Origin: Escherichia coli | GTDB taxonomy: Bacteria; Pseudomonadota; Gammaproteobacteria; Enterobacterales; Enterobacteriaceae | Strand: one strand, 5' to 3' | Length of the DNA: 64,000 bases | NCBI RefSeq assembly: GCF_011045215.1 | Contig: NZ_CP049201.1 | In this document: in pieces, positions 1-25,207 of the stretch | Layout of the letters: every line of letters begins with the position of its first letter | How positions within the stretch are numbered: the stretch's first letter is position 1 | Made by a program: the position numbers and the translations under genes | Notes under the pieces: generated by a model | The model's database searches: none | What the model was told of the DNA's origin: nothing | The model's input: the letters and a program-made list of their open reading frames with translations, nothing else

Positions 1-56
1 GCACTGCTGGACACCCAGCCCACATCCTGACGCGCTTCGCTTGTCTGCTGCTTCGC

Positions 57-81
57 CGGGGCATAAAAAATTTATGCCCCG
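57..81. other. Perfect inverted repeat / stem-loop (CGGGGCATAAA-aaa-TTTATGCCCCG)
   Basis: 11-bp arms read directly; no adjacent T-tract, so not a canonical intrinsic terminator. Confidence 0.5.
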
Positions 82-560
82 ACTCTCCAGCTCCTGTATC
101 AATCAGATAATTTCACGACGTCTTCCAGCTTATTGCCATCATCGACGGTCAGGCTCTTACGCAATCCCATCGCGCTGACTGCATGTTCTCGCCGCCTCAG
201 TGCGATTTTGACGGCCTTATCTGCCACCCCATCAAATCAAAAGCCCTCACGTCTTTTTCACGCTCAGCGTGAGAAATACAGCCATTCTGTTGTGTTGCTG
301 CGACATCGTTCAGGGGATGCTATTTATCCCCTGAAACGCGGGCTGTTCCCCCGTCACCTGCGCGCAGAAAAAACGCGTTTTTTTGTGCACGCACGGATCC
401 TTGACGGATCCAGCCGCCACGGGGGCCGGAAGGGCAAAAAGTCGTTCAAAAAAATTGTGCAAATTTGTGCACTATCGTGCAGTGTGCATCGTGCTGTTTT
501 CTGCGCAAAAAACGGATGGTAAATTTGTTCGTAGCAGGGAAATTTTAATGAGCGCAAGAC

Positions 561-1091
561 ATGAAGAAAGATTCATATCCTTATTTGATTTGCATGACTG
601 TTTCAGTGCTAGGGATTATTTTCCTCTTTTACTGGTGGAGGGCAGATATCTACAGGATTACATATCTTAATTCGCGTATATCCAATTATTACATCTTGTG
701 TAGTATGGGTATGTCCTTTTTCTTCTCCTTGTTTCTGGTGAAGAGGGGGGTAGTGAAGCAAAGTGGCTGGAAAGGACTGTCGGAATACCTGAAGGTTTAT
801 GCTGGCTCTTGCATTCTTACAGGGATATTCCTGATTATTCCTCTTATGATGGTGACTTATTTTTTACCAGGAGTAACATCATCATATGTTGCACCGTATG
901 AGTATACATCTGGTAGTTCAAGAAGCTGTTCCGGAGCGTTTGTTGATGATCCCGAACTGCATAAAAATATTCTTATTTGCTATCCGTATGGTAACTATGA
1001 ATATGACAATATTATCTATGTTGAAAAGAAAACTAATGCATTGGGCGTTGTTGTGACGTATGCACAGACTGCACGAGACGATGCTGAATAA
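561..1091 (+). CDS. Hypothetical polytopic membrane protein (about 3 predicted TM helices, soluble C-terminal ~80 aa); AT-rich cargo gene
   Basis: 176-aa ORF with three long hydrophobic segments; strongly AT-rich relative to flanking DNA; no family recognised. Confidence 0.5.
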   Translation: MKKDSYPYLICMTVSVLGIIFLFYWWRADIYRITYLNSRISNYYILCSMGMSFFFSLFLVKRGVVKQSGWKGLSEYLKVYAGSCILTGIFLIIPLMMVTYFLPGVTSSYVAPYEYTSGSSRSCSGAFVDDPELHKNILICYPYGNYEYDNIIYVEKKTNALGVVVTYAQTARDDAE

Positions 1092-1282
1092 GATACTACA
1101 GATATAGTCCACTTTTTTGTTTATTTGTCGGGATAAAAACAAATTACCCCGACTCACCATGTATTAATCTTCCGCTTTAAGTTAGTATTTTAGCTGCGCT
1201 GTCCTGCTATTCAGCAAAGCGGCGTACTTTAATGCGTCCTGTGCTTTCTGGAATTTAAGTGCATAGTCAGTGGCGATTTTTT

Positions 1283-1564
1283 CTAGTTCAGCGATTCGGT
1301 TGTTTTTGGTTTCCAGCCAATCAAGTAGCGCCAATACTTCAGGATCCCGACATCCAACACTGTTACGCGTGATTTTTCATAATGTTCGTCGGCAAGAGTT
1401 CGGCCAATTTTGAAATCTCCATCATCACCATAACCGGAGCAGGCATAAACAACCTGTGCTCCAGATATTCGCTGAATTGACATTTCCTCGCCGCAAATAG
1501 GGCATTTCGGTACTGGCACAGGTGAATAACGTTCACGTAATGCCTGATAGTTGATTTCGCTCAT
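1283..1564 (-). CDS. Small zinc-ribbon protein (CPICG...CSG); probably frameshifted, coding signal continues in another frame to 1185
   Basis: 93-aa ORF with CxxC...C motif; protein-like translation continues in a second frame (DPEVLALLDWLETKNNRIAELEK...) past the stop at 1283. Confidence 0.4.
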   Translation of the reverse strand: MSEINYQALRERYSPVPVPKCPICGEEMSIQRISGAQVVYACSGYGDDGDFKIGRTLADEHYEKSRVTVLDVGILKYWRYLIGWKPKTTESLN

Positions 1565-1627
1565 TAAGTCGTTCTCCTTGTTTATGTTCTGAGGTGGAGA
1601 GCAGGGCGAACTCGCCCTGATGTTGTG

Positions 1628-1939
1628 TTATTCAGGAAATAACGCCCGGATATTTCCGGCCATCTGACTGGTTATCTGTGCGGTTGATACTGGCTGTGAT
1701 GCGGGGCGTTCTGTCCTGGTTTGTGTCACTGATAACGCTTCATCATCAGCCCATGCAGCTAGTCGGTAAGCCTCTGCCGGATTCATTTTCAGAAGTGCCA
1801 GCCCGGCCAGAAAAGCCACACGTTGGCCGCTTTTGCGGGCTTCTGGTGTAAGGCTGTCCAGCCAGGCGCATGCTTCGCCTTCGTTCTTGACGGCGGCGGG
1901 CTTCAGATAGAAACTTATCCGTCTGGTTGGTGTCGTCAT
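1628..1939 (-). CDS. parR: ParR (StbB)-like centromere-binding protein
   Basis: 103 aa from Met at 1939; resembles plasmid R1 ParR (from memory); AAGGAG RBS; starts 4 nt after parM stop. Confidence 0.55.
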   Translation of the reverse strand: MTTPTRRISFYLKPAAVKNEGEACAWLDSLTPEARKSGQRVAFLAGLALLKMNPAEAYRLAAWADDEALSVTQTRTERPASQPVSTAQITSQMAGNIRALFPE

Positions 1940-1943
1940 TGGT

Positions 1944-2903
1944 TTACTCCTTGTCCATTGCGTACAGCCCATTAACCAGAGCAAACTGTGGCACCCCGTC
2001 CGCGATGAAAGTCGCATTAACTCCGCAGGCTTCGCGGATAGCGGGTGCCACAATCTCCGCCCCGCCACCGACAACCATCACCCGCCCGTAACCCGAAAAA
2101 ACCGCCAGCGCGCGGATCACGCGTTGTTTCAGTGTTTCTTCCTTTTCACGAATAACCGCCATCAGGCTGGCGTAATGCGCGTCATTGTGGATGTGTTGGC
2201 GCAACCAGGCTTCATCATGGCGATGTTCGATAATGGTATTGGCGATGTGGTGACTGGTACGCATACCGTTAGCGGCCATCACCGACAGCACGGCACCGGC
2301 CATCAGGGAGACGCCTACGTGTGGATCGCAAAACACCTGGCTGATACCTGCCAGTTGCCCCTGAACCTTTGCCACATCCAGCGTGGTTCCGCCTAAATCC
2401 ACAATCAGCAGGGATTCAAACGGACTCATGTCAGCCAGTGCTTTAAAGCCAGCCGGAATGGATTCAGGCATAACCCGCACGTTACGGATAGTGAATGCTT
2501 CGCCGTTCTGGTACTCCACCGGGCGCATAACGTTCGCTTTTTTGCGGTTGATGTTGGCCATGTCCGGCTGTGCGTTTGTGTCGAAATACTCGCTCAGTGG
2601 CAGGGTGACAACCACATCCACCTCCTGTGGCGTGATGCCTGATTTGACCAGCGTGTGATGAATGGCGATTACATTCACATCGCTGTACTGGTATTGCGTG
2701 TCGGTCGTCTGGACAAAGCGATCGCTGACCGGATCAAAACCATAGCGCACGCCATCAAGCATGTAGTTCGCGGGCTGCATGCCACCGAACGGCGCAGATC
2801 ATTCCGACTTGAAGCTGTTCGGGCTGATGGCGTTGCGGCGTTCGCCATTCTCAGTCCATGCCAGCTTGATGTTGGTGGAGCCGTCGTCGATACAAATTTT
2901 CAT
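1944..2903 (-). pseudogene. parM: ParM (StbA)-like actin-type partition ATPase, interrupted by in-frame TGA at 2799-2801
   Basis: N-terminus MKICIDDGSTNIKLAW...NSFKSE then TGA, then in-frame continuation SAPFGGMQPANYML...; strong similarity to R1 ParM (from memory), where this position is Trp. Confidence 0.75.
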
Positions 2904-2932
2904 GTCGCTTTTCCTTATGTTGATTAATTAAT

Positions 2933-3050
2933 CGTTTACGGGATTCTGAAATCCCGTTTTTGCCTGTTTTGTGTGCGCTTCATATATCGCGGCGCGTTTT
3001 TTGCTCATTTACGGGATTTGTGAATCCCGTTTCTGTCTGTTTTTTGTTTC
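2933..3050. repeat. Two copies (2933-2975, 3006-3050) of a ~45-bp repeat, each with palindrome ACGGGATT-N4-AATCCCGT; candidate parC-like centromere/operator
   Basis: Direct repeat with internal inverted repeat, immediately upstream of the parM start. Confidence 0.6.
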
Positions 3051-4533
3051 CACTGGTCAGGCCACCCCGCAGCAGGTCTGCTTTGCGGCGGGCACGTTCA
3101 GTGGTTTCACTGATTCTCTGTGCGTGCTCTGCGTCGCGGATGGCGCGCAGCATGTCAGAAAGCACGGTAACGGGGGTTTTCATGGTGTTCTGGTCCTGCT
3201 GAAGTGTGGATGCCAGACGTGCGGCGGCTTCGAGGTCTGATGCCCCCAGCTGTTCCAGATAGCTGGCGACCGGGTTATGGCGGATCTCCGTGCTGCTTAC
3301 GCCGTGATTACGGCTCAGGCGCTGCCAGAGCTGCGTGATTCGGCTGTCCGGGCGGGTATCCGGTTTGCGTACAATTTCAAATCCCTGCGGTGCAATGATG
3401 CTGCCGTCAACGTACAGGCTGCCGCCCCGTAACAGGTGCTGCATCTGCTGTTCACCGATATGCATGCCGAGAGATTCGGCAGATTCCCGCCATTCTTTAG
3501 CGAGTAATTCGTGGTTATCAGGCAAAGGCCGCTGCTGTTTGCGGCTCTGTGTCCAGCTCTGCATTTCATCACTGCTGTTTTTTGCCTGTTTGTCACGCAG
3601 CGAACGCATCAGCGCCCGGCGTTCGTGCCGTTTCAGTGAGCGCACCCATTCATCCACATCAACGCCGTCAGGAAGCTGCGGCCACGGTGCTGGCCGTTCT
3701 TCCGGCTGTTCTGTCCCGTTGTTGTCCGTTTCCTGTACACGGGGACAGTTATTGCCACGAGTCCAAGGGGCGGCAGGGCCGCTCTGAAGGTCAAAACCAT
3801 TTTCGCGGGAGCTGTCTTCCGCTTCCGGTTTGCGTCTTACCAGCTTCCAGTTATCCGGATGCGTGCATACGCGGGAAGACTCCCCGATGAGCGGCGACCA
3901 GATCCCGTAAATCTGTACACTCTGCTCACCGTAATCGTTCAGTTCATCTGCGAGGTCGTAGGCGGTGCGAATCAGGTAGTCTTTGCGTGGAACAAGCACG
4001 CCACCCTGTTTTTCAATGTAGGTGGCAAAACACCCGGCATCAGCGGCAGCGAGTACCGCATCCATTGCGTCATCCTTCAGCCGTTGCGGGCCTTCCGGGT
4101 TGCGTGCCATCTGGCTGGCAAGGCGGCGCAGTTCACGCCACACCTGACGGGAGGGGATACCAAAGAACTGGAACTGGCGGACCCGGTGAAGGCGCGCCCA
4201 GCCGATGGCGCGTTCCACGCTCTCGGCCATTGATTTTCCGGTTTCGTGGTCAACGCGTGGCTTGCCCGTTTTCGGGTCGATGCCATCCACGGCGCGGCTG
4301 TCCAGGTTCTTTCCGATGTAGGTGGCGATGTAGCTGGTTGGCGTGCCTTTTGAGCCGTCGACGTACTCCGCCTTAAAACGCGGAGTTATGTCATCGCCCA
4401 GCTCGTGGCGGTCTTCCTGAATGGCAATATCGCAGACGTGGGACACGATGGTTTCAATCTCGTCCGGATGTGCAAAGACCATCATATGCCAGTGCACAGT
4501 GCCGTCATGGTGAGGCTCCAGCGGTGTATTCAC
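2980..4533 (-). pseudogene. HUH-motif rolling-circle replication initiator, P2 gpA-like; apparently 5'-truncated
   Basis: 517-aa ORF begins at GTG right at the motif HHDGTVHWHMMVFAHPDE, preceded by in-frame TGA; upstream 300 bp is coding-like in two other frames. Confidence 0.5.
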
Positions 4534-4686
4534 TCAGCGAGGCACACCCGCCAGCAGTGTGATGCGCCAGCATTGCCGCAAATACGGAGGCCGGGGAGTC
4601 GTAATACGCCAGCAGTGATTCGCCATGCGGTGTCAGGCAGCGCAACGCCAGCCCGTGTGGTGTTAAGTCCACGCGGTAGCAGTCGT

Positions 4687-4836
4687 CTACTGTGAAATAA
4701 AGGGTGAGCGTTGTTCTTTAGCTGCCATTTCATCAATGACGGCTCGCTCTTCGAGGGACAGCCGAAGTGCCAGTCTTGGACCTGTGGCGGTGTTACGCGG
4801 AATGCGTGATCTGGTATCGTGAAGAACTTGTTTCAT
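4687..4836 (-). CDS. Small 49-aa ORF divergent from the XRE gene (possible Cox/excisionase-like or RHH regulator)
   Basis: ATG at 4836 to TAG at 4687; below the 60-aa ORF-track cutoff; position equivalent to cox in a P2-type early region. Confidence 0.3.
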   Translation of the reverse strand: MKQVLHDTRSRIPRNTATGPRLALRLSLEERAVIDEMAAKEQRSPFISQ

Positions 4837-4878
4837 AGTGGTATATTGTGATCATCTAATAGCTCATGAAATCATTTT

Positions 4879-4896
4879 GGTATCAAAAAAGATACC
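4879..4896. promoter_or_regulatory. Palindrome GGTATC-N6-GATACC in the divergent promoter region; candidate operator
   Basis: 6-bp perfect inverted arms with A6 spacer between divergent starts at 4836 and 4912. Confidence 0.35.
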
Positions 4897-4911
4897 TGTC
4901 AAGGTTTTTGT

Positions 4912-5316
4912 ATGAAAAATGATATTGGTCAGCGGTTGCGTGAGGAAAGGGAAAGATTGGGGCTTAGTCAAGTTGCTATGAGCGACATTGGTGGAGTCAA
5001 AAAGCTAACTCAGCTTAGATATGAGAAAGGAGATAGCTTTCCTGATGCTGCGTATTTGGCAGCGCTGTCTCGTTTTGGCCTTGATGTTCAGTATGTTGTG
5101 TTGGGAATTCACTCACCTGAAACTTATAACGATGATGAGCAGGAGTTGATTACTCGCTTTCGAGCAGCTTCGTTAGATGTAAAAAACGCGGTGATCGGGG
5201 CTTTAAAAGGTGCGGGCAGTGAAAAGGAAACTCAGCCATCAGGGCGTGAGTTAAATATTTCTGGTGGTAATAACCGTATCGCTGGTCGTGACTATAACGA
5301 AACTAAGGGTAGGTGA
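4912..5316 (+). CDS. XRE-family helix-turn-helix protein (repressor-like) with C-terminal tail carrying an NNRIAGRDYNE motif
   Basis: N-terminal HTH signature (IGQRLREERERLGLSQVAMSDIGGVKKLTQLRYEKG); low GC. Confidence 0.7.
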   Translation: MKNDIGQRLREERERLGLSQVAMSDIGGVKKLTQLRYEKGDSFPDAAYLAALSRFGLDVQYVVLGIHSPETYNDDEQELITRFRAASLDVKNAVIGALKGAGSEKETQPSGRELNISGGNNRIAGRDYNETKGR

Positions 5317-5331
5317 TAGTAGGGAGGTGAC

Positions 5332-5982
5332 ATGGCCGTCAACTCAAACGGTTCAAACAATCGCGTTGCTGGGCGTGATTTTCACGAAAAGAATATTCAG
5401 ATAGAGCGATATGATGGTTCTCATACCGTCAATATCGCAATCCCTTCGAATAATGATGATGACGCTCGCCCTTTGCTTAAGGCACAGCGTAAGGAGCTAA
5501 ATAGCTTGGTTGCTGCTATTGCAGAAGCTAGCAATACTGAAGCGTTTATTATTTGGCAAAAAGTACATGCGGAGATTGGTGTAGCTGGTATTGATGATAT
5601 GACAATAAATCAATATAAAACAGCGGAGAGTTTTCTGCATGCAATGCTTGAGCGATGTAAAGATCATGATGCCTGTAAGACTCTTGTAAGTTTATTACTA
5701 CGTAACAGTGAAGACTGTGGACTTCGACAAAAACTTCTGCGGTATTGCCATATCAATTTCGGTACAGGACGTTTAAACGATCTTACTCGTTCTCAGTTAC
5801 AGTCTGCATTGTCGTGGTTAGAGCAACAATCGGTATCAAGCCACTCAGAGAATTCGACCTTACCAGAAGTTCGCCTTCGTGCTTCAGAATTAATCCGATT
5901 TTATCCAAAAGAAATAATATTCTTTATCTGCGTAGGGGTTTTGGTAGGCGGAGCCATTTCTAGGATGTTTTTTAATTTGTAA
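5332..5982 (+). CDS. Hypothetical protein, cytoplasmic domain plus single C-terminal transmembrane anchor; N-terminus repeats the NNRVAGRDFHE motif
   Basis: 216 aa; strong RBS AGGGAGGTGA 5 nt upstream; C-terminal hydrophobic segment IIFFICVGVLVGGAI; low GC. Confidence 0.6.
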   Translation: MAVNSNGSNNRVAGRDFHEKNIQIERYDGSHTVNIAIPSNNDDDARPLLKAQRKELNSLVAAIAEASNTEAFIIWQKVHAEIGVAGIDDMTINQYKTAESFLHAMLERCKDHDACKTLVSLLLRNSEDCGLRQKLLRYCHINFGTGRLNDLTRSQLQSALSWLEQQSVSSHSENSTLPEVRLRASELIRFYPKEIIFFICVGVLVGGAISRMFFNL

Positions 5983-6011
5983 TCTTACTTGAGCTAAATT
6001 GAGGCAATGAC

Positions 6012-6359
6012 ATGAAAGTAAAAAAGGTTCAACTATTAGTTGCTTTTTTATCTATGTTTTCTTTTTCCGCCGTCGCAATGCCTTTTAAAACTATTGAACG
6101 TGAGAGTTTCAATGGAGTATGGCCATTTAATACAGATGAGGTTCAATTGCAGTGTCTTGATGGTAATCCTTATGTGATGAATTTTGACGATAATAAGTTA
6201 TATGCGCTTACAGGTTTGGCTCGAATAAAAGGTAAAACATTTGGTGCGTTACCGTTAGATAACAATAATCCATTTTGGCTAGATAATGATGCCGCCCCAG
6301 GGTTAAAAAAGAATCTGGGGGACGTCACTAAGGCTGCATTTGATTTATGTGATAAGTAA
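6012..6359 (+). CDS. Small secreted/periplasmic protein with signal peptide (tentatively DUF2511/YebY-like)
   Basis: 115 aa; N-terminal signal peptide MKVKKVQLLVAFLSMFSFSAVA; family assignment from memory only. Confidence 0.55.
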   Translation: MKVKKVQLLVAFLSMFSFSAVAMPFKTIERESFNGVWPFNTDEVQLQCLDGNPYVMNFDDNKLYALTGLARIKGKTFGALPLDNNNPFWLDNDAAPGLKKNLGDVTKAAFDLCDK

Positions 6360-6364
6360 CAAAA

Positions 6365-7366
6365 ATGTCGGTTCGTAAAACTCCATCAGGTAAATGGCTT
6401 TGCGAATGTTATCCCTACGGAGCATCGGGAAAACGCATTCGTAAACAGTTTGCGACAAAAAGTGAGGCGCTCTCTTATGAGCGCCGTTTAATGAATAGTA
6501 GAGTTGGAGACGAGTTTCAAGATGGTTCTGGTCCTCGTCTTTCTGAGTTGATTGCTCGTTGGTTTGAGATGTACGGAAAAACCTTGTCCTCTGGTGCAGA
6601 GCGCAAAGTCAAACTTGAGGCGATTTGTTCTAGGCTGGGAGATCCATTTGCTTCTCAGTTTGACAAAAATATGTTTGCTACTTATCGGGAAAGAAGGCTA
6701 TCAGGAGAATGGAATCCCAAGGGGAAGAAAAAACTTAGTGAAGCAACCGTTAATCGCGAGCAGTCATATCTACATGCTGTTTTTGCCGAACTGAAGCGCC
6801 TTGGGGAGTGGTCTGGTGAAAACCCCCTGACTGGAATTCGCAAGTTTCGTGAGGAAGAAAAGGAGCTGGCGTTTCTGTATGTAGATGAGATTGAACGCCT
6901 TTTGATTGCGTGTGATGATTCACGGAATAAAGATTTGGGGGTTGTTGTCCGTATTGGGCTTGCGACTGGTGCTCGGTGGAGTGAAGCAGAAGGATTAAAG
7001 CAATCTCAAGTACTGCCCGGTCGAATCACATTTGTTAAAACTAAAGGAAAGAAGAACCGCACTGTACCGATTTCACCTCAATTGCAGGCTATGCTTCCTA
7101 AAAAACGAGGAGCGCTATTTTCACCATGTTATGAGGCTTTTGACGCTGCAATTAAGAGAGCGAAGATAGAGCTCCCTGATGGGCAATTAACTCATGTGCT
7201 ACGTCACACGTTTGCTAGTCATTTTATGATGCGGGGCGGAAATATTCTTGTGTTGCAAAAAATACTGGGGCATAGCGATATAAAAATGACTATGCGTTAT
7301 GCGCATTTTGCTCCGGGTCATTTAGAGGCTGCTGTTGAATTAAACCCTTTTGACAATAGAGGGTAA
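6365..7366 (+). CDS. int: Tyrosine recombinase, P2-type phage integrase
   Basis: 333 aa; motifs LATGARWSEA, ITFVKTKGKKNRTVPIS, HVLRHTFASHFMMRGGNILVLQKILGH, MRYAHF closely match P2 Int (from memory). Confidence 0.9.
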   Translation: MSVRKTPSGKWLCECYPYGASGKRIRKQFATKSEALSYERRLMNSRVGDEFQDGSGPRLSELIARWFEMYGKTLSSGAERKVKLEAICSRLGDPFASQFDKNMFATYRERRLSGEWNPKGKKKLSEATVNREQSYLHAVFAELKRLGEWSGENPLTGIRKFREEEKELAFLYVDEIERLLIACDDSRNKDLGVVVRIGLATGARWSEAEGLKQSQVLPGRITFVKTKGKKNRTVPISPQLQAMLPKKRGALFSPCYEAFDAAIKRAKIELPDGQLTHVLRHTFASHFMMRGGNILVLQKILGHSDIKMTMRYAHFAPGHLEAAVELNPFDNRG

Positions 7367-7472
7367 AAAGTGGCGATAAAAAGTGACAATAGATTCAAAT
7401 GGCGTCGTATAGAGCTATTTGCAAAGTTAATAAAATCATAAGGTTATGATTTATAAATGGTGGTTGATAGTT

Positions 7473-7527
7473 TTTAAAATCCCTCGGCGTTCGCGCTGTG
7501 CGGGTTCAAGTCCCGCTCCGGGTACCA
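7473..7527 (+). other. leuZ: 3' ~55 nt of tRNA-Leu (leuZ) ending in CCA: attachment-site core; not an intact tRNA
   Basis: TTTAAAATCCCTCGGCGTTCGCGCTGTGCGGGTTCAAGTCCCGCTCCGGGTACCA matches the leuZ 3' part; upstream sequence only partly tRNA-like, no acceptor-stem 5' strand. Confidence 0.8.
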
Positions 7528-7570
7528 TGGGAAAGATAAGAATAAAATCAAAGCAATAAGCAGTGTCGTG

Positions 7571-7596
7571 AAACCACCTTCGGGTGGTTTTTTTGT
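7571..7596 (+). terminator. Intrinsic terminator of the leuZ tRNA operon
   Basis: AAACCACC-TTCG-GGTGGTTT stem followed by T-run. Confidence 0.8.
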
Positions 7597-7722
7597 GCCT
7601 GCAACTTGTCGTTACACCCTCCTTAATTTTTAATCACCGGCAAAGCCACTCAAAAAGTATCTCTGATACGGACCGGCATGTAAGATAGGTGCTGGCGAGT
7701 TGAGATCCACAAGGAAAAGCGT

Positions 7723-8388
7723 ATGAAAACGGGACCGTTAAACGAAAGTGAGTTGGAATGGCTGGACGATATTCTGACCAAATACAACACTGACCACGCC
7801 ATCCTTGATGTGGCGGAGCTGGACGGTTTATTGACGGCAGTGTTGAGTTCTCCGCAAGAGATTGAACCGGCACAGTGGCTGGTTGCCGTGTGGGGTGGGG
7901 CTGACTATGTGCCGCGCTGGGCGTCAGAGAAAGAGATGACGCGCTTTATGAACCTGGCTTTTCAACATATGGCCGATACCGCAGAGCGTCTGAACGAATT
8001 CCCGGAGCAGTTTGAGCCGTTATTCGGCTTGCGAGAAGTTGATGGCAGCGAGCTGACGATTGTTGAGGAGTGGTGCTTTGGCTATATGCGGGGCGTGGCA
8101 CTTTCTGACTGGTCAACATTGCCCGATTCGTTAAAACCAGCGCTGGAGGCGATAGCGCTGCACGGTACTGAGGAAAACTTCGAGCGGGTAGAGAAGATGT
8201 CGCCAGAAGCGTTTGAAGAGAGCGTAGATGCCATTCGACTGGCGGCGCTTGATTTACATGCATACTGGATGGCGCATCCGCAGGAAAAAGCTGTTCAGCA
8301 ACCGATCAAAGCAGAAGAGAAACCGGGGCGTAACGATCCTTGTCCGTGCGGCAGTGGTAAGAAATTTAAGCAGTGCTGCCTGCATTAA
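7723..8388 (+). CDS. yecA: UPF0149 protein YecA with C-terminal SEC-C zinc motif
   Basis: 221 aa; C-terminal [13 protein letters not shown]; K-12 synteny. Confidence 0.9.

Positions 8389-15802: not shown

Positions 15803-19155
<3,353 letters not shown>

Positions 19156-22315: not shown

Positions 22316-25207
<2,892 letters not shown>

Follow-up and report, generated by a model that had tools for sequence, protein, structure and literature searches.

The interval between the replication gene A and the portal gene Q of phage P2, next to cos, holds the tin/old locus, and related phages carry differing cargo at the same position. The gpA-gpQ hotspot of P2-like phages has been defined by Rousset et al. 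2022 (PMC9122126). According to this study a partition system is present in about a quarter of the P2-like phages, the hotspot also carries cargo unrelated to defence, for example toxins and partition systems, and the exact gene arrangement analyzed here is listed in its Table S5. Thus, the locus is real, ordinary and already known as a described cargo hotspot of the P2 family. It shares its position with the P2 tin/old locus but lacks tin and old as well as any other recognised defence gene, and half of the interval is instead a lineage-conserved partition cassette.

Among the closest known systems are the phages P88 and P88_4B11 and the Citrobacter phage phiSM, all of the genus Xuanwuvirus. 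Their backbone is the same, gene A is directly followed by parM-parR with a nucleotide identity of 95-97%, and, unlike in our sequence, their parM and gene A are intact. Both P88 (PMC5285337) and phiSM (PMC6456863) have been described as functional temperate phages. Between parR and cos, P88 carries a gene for a ClpX-type zinc-finger protein and a hypothetical gene, and phiSM an unrelated membrane protein termed memP. The partition genes themselves resemble ParMRC of plasmid R1 and stbAB of NR1, in which likewise the gene of the actin-like ParM is followed by that of a small ParR and repeats are found upstream of parM. In contrast to the plasmid systems, parMR resides here on an integrating phage, there are only two palindromes and no iteron array, and parM is inactivated. 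Actin-like systems of integrated elements are known as well, namely SrpMRC of the SXT/R391 ICEs (PMC4489591) and AlpAC of the Corynebacterium prophage CGP3 (PMC4446434). In both, a ParM-type motor and a DNA-binding adaptor are reported to be encoded on a normally chromosomal element and to act on its excised or replicating form. The P88-like parMR may resemble these two systems in this respect.

We analyzed a stretch of 64,000 nucleotides from Escherichia coli (contig NZ_CP049201.1), which we call the window. We suggest that positions 1-2979 are the complete cos-proximal accessory interval of a P88-like prophage, which consists of a fixed partition layer and a hypervariable slot and is decaying. 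We estimate the probability of this reading at about 85%.

Borders of the interval and state of the prophage

By alignment, the first 30 nt of the window correspond to the terminal 30 nt of the gene annotated as portal in the intact prophage SJ7 (16984-18030 of locus L001), with the stop codon of Q at nt 28-30 (Table 1). Phage P88 has the same layout at the Q end. The other border is formed by gene A from position 2980 onward, and the gene order Q, spacer, variable genes, parR, parM and A is common to SJ7, P88, P88_4B11, phiSM and the window. Synteny with SJ7 and P88 agrees with these borders. The first-pass annotation had assumed that the cargo is cut off at the left edge and that part of a system may be missing, which is not supported. 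In contrast, its placement of the locus at the tin/old position of P2 stands, as the interval is bordered by gene A on one side and portal gene Q on the other. Within our overall reading, the prophage most probably belongs to the P88-like phages (genus Xuanwuvirus, Peduoviridae) of the P2 family and is integrated beside yecA.

The non-coding spacer following Q is conserved even in H45, a P2-like phage without a parMR match. An open reading frame of 42 codons in the spacer (99-227), which is annotated in P88, was rejected as a gene; we treat it as non-coding since the substitutions between the window and SJ7 mostly change amino acids. Both ends of the linear P88_4B11 record meet at about position 436/437 of the window, 46 nt from the boundary of the AT-rich cassette, and the joined ends align to positions 357-482 with 96% identity. 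The ends of this one linear database record would place cos in this part of the spacer. A search with a 19-mer taken as P2 cos, with up to 3 mismatches allowed, gave no match. With Q ending at the left edge and cos at its putative position, the window contains the entire A-Q interval.

Table 1. Features of the A-Q interval and the adjoining part of gene A in the window
Feature	Position (nt)	Strand	Remarks
Portal gene Q, 3' end and stop codon	1-30	+	P2 late gene; left border of the A-Q interval
Conserved non-coding cos-proximal spacer	31-482	none	kept in P88-like phages and H45
Perfect 11-bp hairpin	57-81	none	just 3' of Q
Putative cos cleavage region	~418-437	none	from the ends of the linear P88_4B11 record
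Short repeats, TGTGCA type	451-497	none	repeat search
AT-rich 712-bp cassette	483-1194	none	substitutes for 258 bp of the commoner Ea22-type locus
Membrane-protein gene	561-1091	+	intact, 176 aa, convergent
Ead/Ea22-like pseudogene, N-terminal Cys4 zinc ribbon	1182-1564	-	frameshifted, 3'-truncated
parR (stbB-like centromere-binding adaptor)	1628-1939	-	intact, 103 aa
parM (actin-like segregation ATPase) pseudogene	1944-2903	-	premature TGA at codon 35
Two 43-nt direct repeats	2932-2974, 3005-3047	none	repeat search; region 2932-3047
Replication endonuclease gene A, 3' part	2980-4533	-	C-terminal 517 of 946 codons
188-bp remnant between two deletions	4519-4706	none	blastn against SJ7

The replication gene named by the first-pass annotation as the neighbor of the cargo is gene A, but only a C-terminal part of it is left. 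The PHROG 6857/91 profile is covered at positions 357-855 only and the homology to intact gene A stops at nt 4520. With blastn we found positions 22521-23881 of SJ7 (L001) to be absent from the window. Relative to SJ7 there are two deletions of 1361 bp and 3365 bp, by which gene A has lost its N-terminal 433 codons and the prophage its early operon; the deletion junction is absent from all 5426 complete E. coli genomes in our collection. Judging from the nonsense mutation in parM, the frameshift in the Ea22-like gene and the two deletions, the prophage is defective and decaying. Within the interval only parR and the membrane-protein gene are intact, an observation which could merely reflect that the decay is recent.

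The same lesions, together with the truncation of the Ea22-like gene, would also be expected if the prophage were dead and the entire interval an inert leftover that no longer serves the host. We consider this unlikely: besides the intactness of two genes, the membrane protein is identical to that of SJ7 and its family is under purifying selection. Our reading remains that of a decaying prophage with an accessory interval of two layers.

The partition cassette next to gene A

The product of parR matches Pfam Plasmid_stab_B (E = 2e-24) and PHROG 2515 "partition protein" (E = 3e-58), and its reading frame begins 4 nt past the stop codon of parM. In parM, translations and alignment show that codon 35 reads TGA (TCA on the plus strand, 2799-2801) where the relatives have TGG. 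The longest open reading frame left (1944-2780) lacks the N-terminal 41 residues including the conserved DDGSTNIK stretch. The intact SJ7 orthologue shows the StbA_N domain (E = 1e-81) and the ParM C-terminal domain (E = 2e-68). Of a type II partition system, the window thus retains the small ParR encoded downstream, but not an intact ParM.

The partition genes were found in the P88-like phages examined and in 1306 of the 5426 complete E. coli genomes (24%), and ParM is at least 98% identical across the 80 best-matching IMG/VR loci that were kept. Being common to the whole lineage, parMR does not belong to the swapped cargo, and the initial listing of these genes among the alternating cargo has to be dropped. 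We also considered whether these phages are normally carried as plasmids and rejected this as a general rule, since in complete E. coli genomes 1451 of the 1453 parMR copies lie on the chromosome. Stable plasmid carriage is therefore rare at best. A circular record of 34,461 bp is a complete P88-like genome; thus, a free circular form can be assembled.

Upstream of parM two direct repeats straddle the start of parM and the stop codon of gene A. Each of them holds a 20-nt palindrome (ACGGGATT..AATCCCGT) and the spacing is 73 nt. The repeats are conserved in all 73 loci examined, which comprise both ParR allele classes. They were also found in 5 of 5 other parMR-bearing loci scanned and were absent from all 7 Salmonella P2-like loci without parMR. 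A role as parC would have been favoured if the palindromes co-varied with the two classes of ParR alleles, but they do not. We regard the palindromic repeats as a candidate parC or operator. As one palindrome copy lies inside gene A, they may alternatively be origin elements or terminators.

We suggest the following role of these genes. The parM-parR pair constitutes a type II partition cassette next to gene A that is conserved across the P88-like lineage, with the two palindromic repeats upstream of parM as the putative and likely ParR site. ParR bound to its site could capture growing ParM filaments, which would push DNA copies apart. In intact phages, parMR would thereby most plausibly position the excised or replicating circular phage genome or secure its inheritance.

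The variable slot and its AT-rich cassette

The truly variable slot is confined to the stretch from parR to cos, about 1 kb (483-1627 in the window). Among 55 complete sibling loci and the window, the stretch from parR to Q shows about 40 arrangements of open reading frames, with parMR itself constant. Several sibling slots match models of known or candidate defence systems, namely AbiLi (AbiL), RmrA (Rmr), IetA together with IetS (IetAS), PDC-M04A (PDC-M04) and PDC-M11A (PDC-M11). Another slot holds a Fic-like gene beside an antitoxin-like gene; these Fic/Phd labels were read from the translations and agree with the row labels in Table S5 of Rousset et al. This bears out the expectation of the first-pass annotation that relatives swap diverse cargo here, including defence genes as far as model matches indicate. 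A late gene does adjoin the interval directly at its left side, and the examined relatives do keep parMR, yet positions 483-1627 still hold variable cargo.

In the interval analyzed here the outcome is different. A search of its open reading frames, including the membrane protein, ParM, ParR and the zinc-ribbon frame, against PADLOC-DB v2 returned no family at E values up to 0.1. There is hence no recognisable known anti-phage system in this interval, and the defence system initially considered for it was not found. The Cys4 zinc-ribbon frame (1283-1564) is the N-terminal stump of an Ead/Ea22-like gene for a product of 196 aa. The full-length version in sibling locus L036 matches Pfam Ead_Ea22 (PF13935) with E = 2.9e-31 over profile positions 1-134 of 139; the copy in the window fails to give a full-length match. 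Here one nucleotide is missing from the C-run at 1346-1348, which shifts the frame after codon 73, and the 3' end of the gene is lost at position 1195 to the AT-rich cassette. The SJ7 copy is also annotated in RefSeq as a frameshifted, incomplete ead/Ea22-like gene. The slot between parR and cos forms the hypervariable layer of the interval, occupied here by an Ead/Ea22-like stump whose 3' end was probably overwritten by the cassette. The original inventory of the interval was correct as to parMR, a zinc-ribbon reading frame and a convergent AT-rich membrane-protein gene; parM and the zinc-ribbon gene turned out to be pseudogenes.

It has been considered that parMR, the zinc-ribbon protein and the membrane protein act jointly as an unrecognised anti-phage system, as the position in the tin/old hotspot and the defence-model matches in the same slot of sibling loci might suggest. 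The genes, however, do not travel together. parMR occurs with about 40 different sets of neighbors, and the membrane-protein gene is found without parMR in the Q-A slot of other P2-like prophages of Salmonella and in a prophage remnant near torI. Moreover, the window carries two of the four as pseudogenes, and PADLOC matches none of the four. Owing to the missing co-occurrence, a joint system is largely refuted and we deem it highly improbable.

The AT-rich cassette has a GC content of 38% compared with 52% in its flanks. Homology to the L036-type locus ends at position 1195 and picks up again at 482, and among the 55 sibling loci only L003 and L071 carry the cassette. The encoded membrane protein is predicted to have three transmembrane helices followed by a C-terminal beta-rich domain (AlphaFold, mean pLDDT 91.8). 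Residues C123, C140 and G162 are invariant in 27 homologues, and dN/dS values of 0.08-0.15 against three alleles indicate strong purifying selection. Searches of Pfam, NCBIfam and PADLOC with the protein and with 27 family members gave no match, the SMODS-associated effector families of Pfam included. It is also not homologous to memP, the membrane protein in the same slot of phiSM. Fold searches returned uncharacterised relatives only, with one weak Foldseek match to a protein annotated as SMODS-associated 2TM beta-strand-rich effector (E = 2e-7, TM = 0.58). By sequence, the protein shows no match to the family of these CBASS effectors, and the annotated genes of the interval and of the examined stretch of the SJ7 prophage include no nucleotide cyclase.

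The cassette thus appears to encode a conserved inner-membrane protein, the beta domain of which is predicted to be periplasmic and probably disulfide-bonded. We regard it as a candidate gene for superinfection exclusion or for another lysogenic-conversion trait; the most likely role would be exclusion of other phages at the level of the cell envelope or some other lysogenic-conversion function. A more specific proposal is that the membrane protein alone is a determinant of superinfection exclusion or abortive infection, that is, a novel defence gene in the slot. This would fit its location in the hotspot as a convergent gene on an AT-rich cassette, the strong purifying selection, the reappearance in this slot on differing P2-like backbones, the predicted inner-membrane topology with a Cys-paired beta domain and the weak structural likeness to the SMODS-associated effector. 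In addition, one distant homologue adjoins DUF4062/TPR proteins, whose likeness to STAND-type defence NTPases is our reading of the Pfam families. On the other hand, neither the PADLOC nor the Pfam searches assign the protein to a defence family, a consensus promoter scan of positions 1-3100 found no sigma-70-like promoter, other distant homologues lie outside prophages in ordinary chromosomal contexts and the cargo of the hotspot is not restricted to defence. We therefore hold this proposal only tentatively. The same holds for its extension, that a new single-gene phage-exclusion determinant is hopping, in Escherichia and Salmonella, from the cos-proximal hotspot of one P2-family prophage to that of another, which is possible but doubtful at present.

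Meaning for the P2 family

As a textbook cos-proximal hotspot of the P2 family, the locus matters little beyond its correct annotation. What the comparison adds is that the hotspot is nested. In P88-like phages its gene A-proximal half is occupied by a fixed partition cassette and only about 1 kb beside cos is exchanged; for roughly one in four P2-like prophages of E. coli this narrows down where new defence genes may be sought. The membrane-protein family is small, unassigned in Pfam, NCBIfam and PADLOC, under strong purifying selection and recurrent in the hotspot, and it is thus a candidate for a cheap phage-exclusion assay.

The prophage and its Q-A interval

The genes which the first-pass annotation had named downstream of the replication gene, that is, parMR, a zinc-ribbon gene and a membrane-protein gene, all exist at the coordinates it had assigned to them.

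Features of the prophage segment adjoining yecA, mainly from the ORF listing and family searches
Feature	Coordinates	Strand	Remarks
Divergent patch	100-230		spans a 42-codon minus-strand ORF annotated in phage P88
TGTGCA-containing repeats	451-497		short, clustered
AT-rich cassette	483-1194		712 bp, 38% GC
Membrane-protein ORF	561-1091	plus	176 codons, in a low-GC patch
Zinc-ribbon ORF	1283-1564	minus	93 codons
parR	1628-1939	minus	
parM	1944-2903	minus	
Replication endonuclease ORF	2980-4533	minus	
Remnant between deletions	4519-4706		188 bp
Short Arc-like ORF			left of the repressor-type gene
Helix-turn-helix repressor-type gene			left of the two accessory genes
First accessory gene	5332-5982	plus	216 aa, weak match to flagellar regulator Flk, hydrophobic C-terminal tail
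Second accessory gene	6012-6359	plus	115 aa, DUF2511 protein, signal-peptide-like N-terminus
Integrase gene	6365-7366		directly beside yecA
yecA	7723-8388		host gene

We queried 5,426 complete E. coli genomes by megablast with window positions 1-7700 and found this prophage, integrated at the identical position beside yecA, in 146 of them. The annotated copy in SJ7 (L001) is a complete P2-family prophage. Its late genes, terminase and portal gene Q are followed by a 531-bp hypothetical gene, an ead/Ea22-like pseudogene, a partitioning/stability protein, ParM, a 946-aa replication endonuclease, the early operon, the repressor, the integrase and yecA. In this synteny the interval lies between Q and A, and the first-pass annotation had correctly recognized the gpA-proximal position of the P2 anti-phage locus. 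The closest relatives in the phage collection are Escherichia phage P88, Xuanwuvirus P88_4B11 and Citrobacter phage phiSM, all of the genus Xuanwuvirus. P88 is reported as a functional temperate phage (PMC5285337), and phiSM is one as well (PMC6456863).

According to the alignment to SJ7, the window begins with the last 30 nt of the portal gene. The whole Q-A interval is therefore inside the window, and the earlier view that the cargo is cut off at the left edge is wrong. Mapped onto the window, both termini of the linear P88_4B11 record meet at about position 436/437, where the cos region is thus likely located. A P2 cos string gave no match. The TGTGCA-containing repeats (AAAATTGTGC / AAATTTGTGC and ATCGTGCAGT / ATCGTGCTGT) abut this putative cos site and the edge of the variable cassette and are partly kept in P88_4B11; they are possibly terminase-binding or promoter elements. 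Further to the left, a patch of 130 nt is about 10% divergent from SJ7 (13 differences), whereas the neighbouring sequence differs by about 1%. As the majority of these differences alter the amino acid, the patch is probably non-coding, with a recombination history of its own.

A fixed partition module and an exchanged slot

We searched viral contigs with ParM, found 203 loci and kept the best 80 of them for comparison. Within these best 80 of 203, ParM is at least 98% identical, and gene A is 87-100% identical where it is matched at full length. There are two types of portal protein (at least 98% or about 30% identical) and two allele classes of ParR, with at least 84% or about 50-58% identity to the ParR of the window. 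Mostly ParM is found at 6001-6957 and ParR at 6965-7276 of the respective locus (L003-L082); a near-uniform ParM adjoins a two-class ParR.

Fifty-five of these loci carry parR as well as Q. In them and in the window, the stop codons of parR and Q lie 989 to 4,170 bp apart, with about 40 ORF arrangements in between. The arrangement of the window is common to only two of the 55 sibling loci. Because ParM is near-uniform while the parR-to-Q segment shows about 40 arrangements, we conclude that the hotspot is nested: parMR is fixed next to gene A throughout the lineage, and exchange is confined to a slot of about 1 kb next to cos. The near-uniformity of ParM contradicts the earlier proposal that parMR itself is swapped cargo. 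Among the complete E. coli genomes parMR is present in 1,306 of 5,426, and 1,451 of its 1,453 copies are chromosomal.

In representative sibling loci the cargo matches the PADLOC models AbiLi, RmrA, IetA with IetS, PDC-M04A and PDC-M11A. Fic/Phd-type gene pairs are present as well; we assigned them by reading the translations, in agreement with the labels in Table S5 of Rousset et al. Thus, the reading of this position as a hotspot holds in general, since relatives swap cargo which includes matches to defence models. It does not extend to a known defence system in the window's own interval, where PADLOC matched none of the ORFs.

Both the locus and the very gene arrangement of the window are already published. 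Rousset et al. 2022 (PMC9122126) define the gpA-gpQ region, adjacent to cos, as a hotspot of P2-like phages, place old and tin of P2 there and count 1,650 arrangements among 18,150 loci; their locus list includes SJ7 ParM, membrane protein and ParR together. A 2026 preprint (10.64898/2026.02.27.708500) names the hotspot again, between GpA and the portal gene. In PMC9122126 the accession of the membrane protein appears only in the locus list and is absent from the table of tested systems.

PADLOC matches neither of the two accessory genes that separate the repressor-type gene from the integrase gene. P2 itself has C directly beside int. The segment with the two accessory genes looks like a second cargo slot. 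The SJ7 prophage further carries a serine O-acetyltransferase gene (L001 3357-3929), flanked by tail genes on one side and the tail-fibre assembly gene on the other; this is the position of the second P2 accessory locus (Z/fun).

Decay of the prophage in the window

Codon 35 of parM is TGA in the window and TGG in relatives. The residual ORF begins at residue 42 and is devoid of the N-terminal stretch MKICIDDGSTNIK, presumably the site of the first phosphate-binding motif as in actin-fold ATPases generally. With this stretch missing, parM is a pseudogene, and since parM is broken the partition system is dead in the window. parR is intact (Plasmid_stab_B match). At 2779-2801 (codons 35-42) two adjacent substitutions convert the Ser42 codon of the relatives into ATG, seven codons past the stop. 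This ATG opens the residual 278-codon ORF; it may have arisen by chance or serve as a restart codon.

Sibling loci carry an intact Ead/Ea22-like gene of 196 aa (Pfam Ead_Ea22, E = 2.9e-31), and the zinc-ribbon ORF corresponds to its N-terminal part. In the window this gene has suffered a 1-nt deletion in the C-run 1346-1348, and homology ends at 1195. Here the cassette stands in place of 258 bp of the commoner locus and carries the intact membrane-protein gene. Of replication gene A only the C-terminal 517 codons are left. Two deletions relative to SJ7, 1,361 and 3,365 bp in size, remove its N-terminal 433 codons and the whole early operon and leave the remnant between them (junctions at about 4520 and about 4698-4706). 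Two of the four genes in the Q-A interval are pseudogenes, and the prophage is defective on account of these gene lesions and deletions. The deletion junction was found in none of the 5,426 complete E. coli genomes; the prophage in the window is therefore a unique defective derivative.

The membrane protein and the partition module

The membrane protein belongs to a small family of 47 clusters at 50% identity among 1.8 billion representatives, and its named members come from Enterobacterales and Pseudomonas. Searches of Pfam, NCBIfam and PADLOC gave no assignment. C123, C140 and G162 are invariant in an alignment of 27 sequences. AlphaFold models the protein with confidence (pLDDT 91.8) as three long helices and a C-terminal beta domain of five strands, plus one more strand supplied by the first loop. 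From the charge distribution along the sequence we predict a cytoplasmic N-terminus and second loop and a periplasmic first loop and beta domain; this predicted location would fit a disulfide between the invariant cysteines. Against a 78%-identical E. coli allele, located in a prophage remnant near torI, and two Salmonella alleles, dN/dS is 0.08-0.15, and we therefore regard the family as functional. In Salmonella, P2-like prophages that lack parMR have homologues of 65% and 55% identity in the corresponding slot, oriented as in the window.

More distant homologues are found in non-phage chromosomal contexts, and one adjoins DUF4062/TPR proteins, which in our reading resemble STAND-type NTPases. 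A homologue with 44% identity is encoded on two metagenomic contigs (L095 and L096, genes at 1-4510 and 5688-6539), where it adjoins two large DUF4062/AAA/TPR proteins; on one of the contigs its neighbours also include a protein of metallo-beta-lactamase fold that matches Anti-Pycsar Apyc1 in Pfam. These surroundings suggest a variable island which may be defence-related. Structure searches gave nothing informative except one weak match to a protein annotated as SMODS-associated 2TM beta-strand-rich effector. Most likely the membrane protein serves envelope-level exclusion or another lysogenic-conversion function; we consider an anti-phage role rather doubtful.

The intact ParM orthologue has both ParM domains, and the ParR gene follows 4 nt downstream of parM. 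Upstream of parM two 43-nt direct repeats, 73 nt apart and each with a 20-nt palindrome, span the parM start and the gene A stop. They are kept in all 73 parMR-bearing loci checked and, by pattern scan, in five of five further ones, and are absent from all seven Salmonella P2-like loci without parMR. The palindromes are the same in both ParR allele classes and show no co-variation with them. We regard these repeats as plausible candidates for the site bound by ParR. In R1 ParMRC, ParR on its site caps ParM filaments that drive sister DNA molecules apart. By analogy, ParR bound to its candidate site would cap ParM filaments which push sister phage DNA apart.

A circular E. coli record of 34,461 bp (NZ_CP148288.1, 1-34461), deposited as "plasmid", represents the full genome of a P88-like phage, including integrase, parMR, gene A and the complete set of late genes. 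Records of this kind are rare; this one agrees with a free circular form of a P88-like phage, be it a prophage in the plasmid state or the assembly of an excised or replicating genome. By analogy with the SXT/R391 and CGP3 systems, parMR would act on the circular phage genome after excision or during replication.
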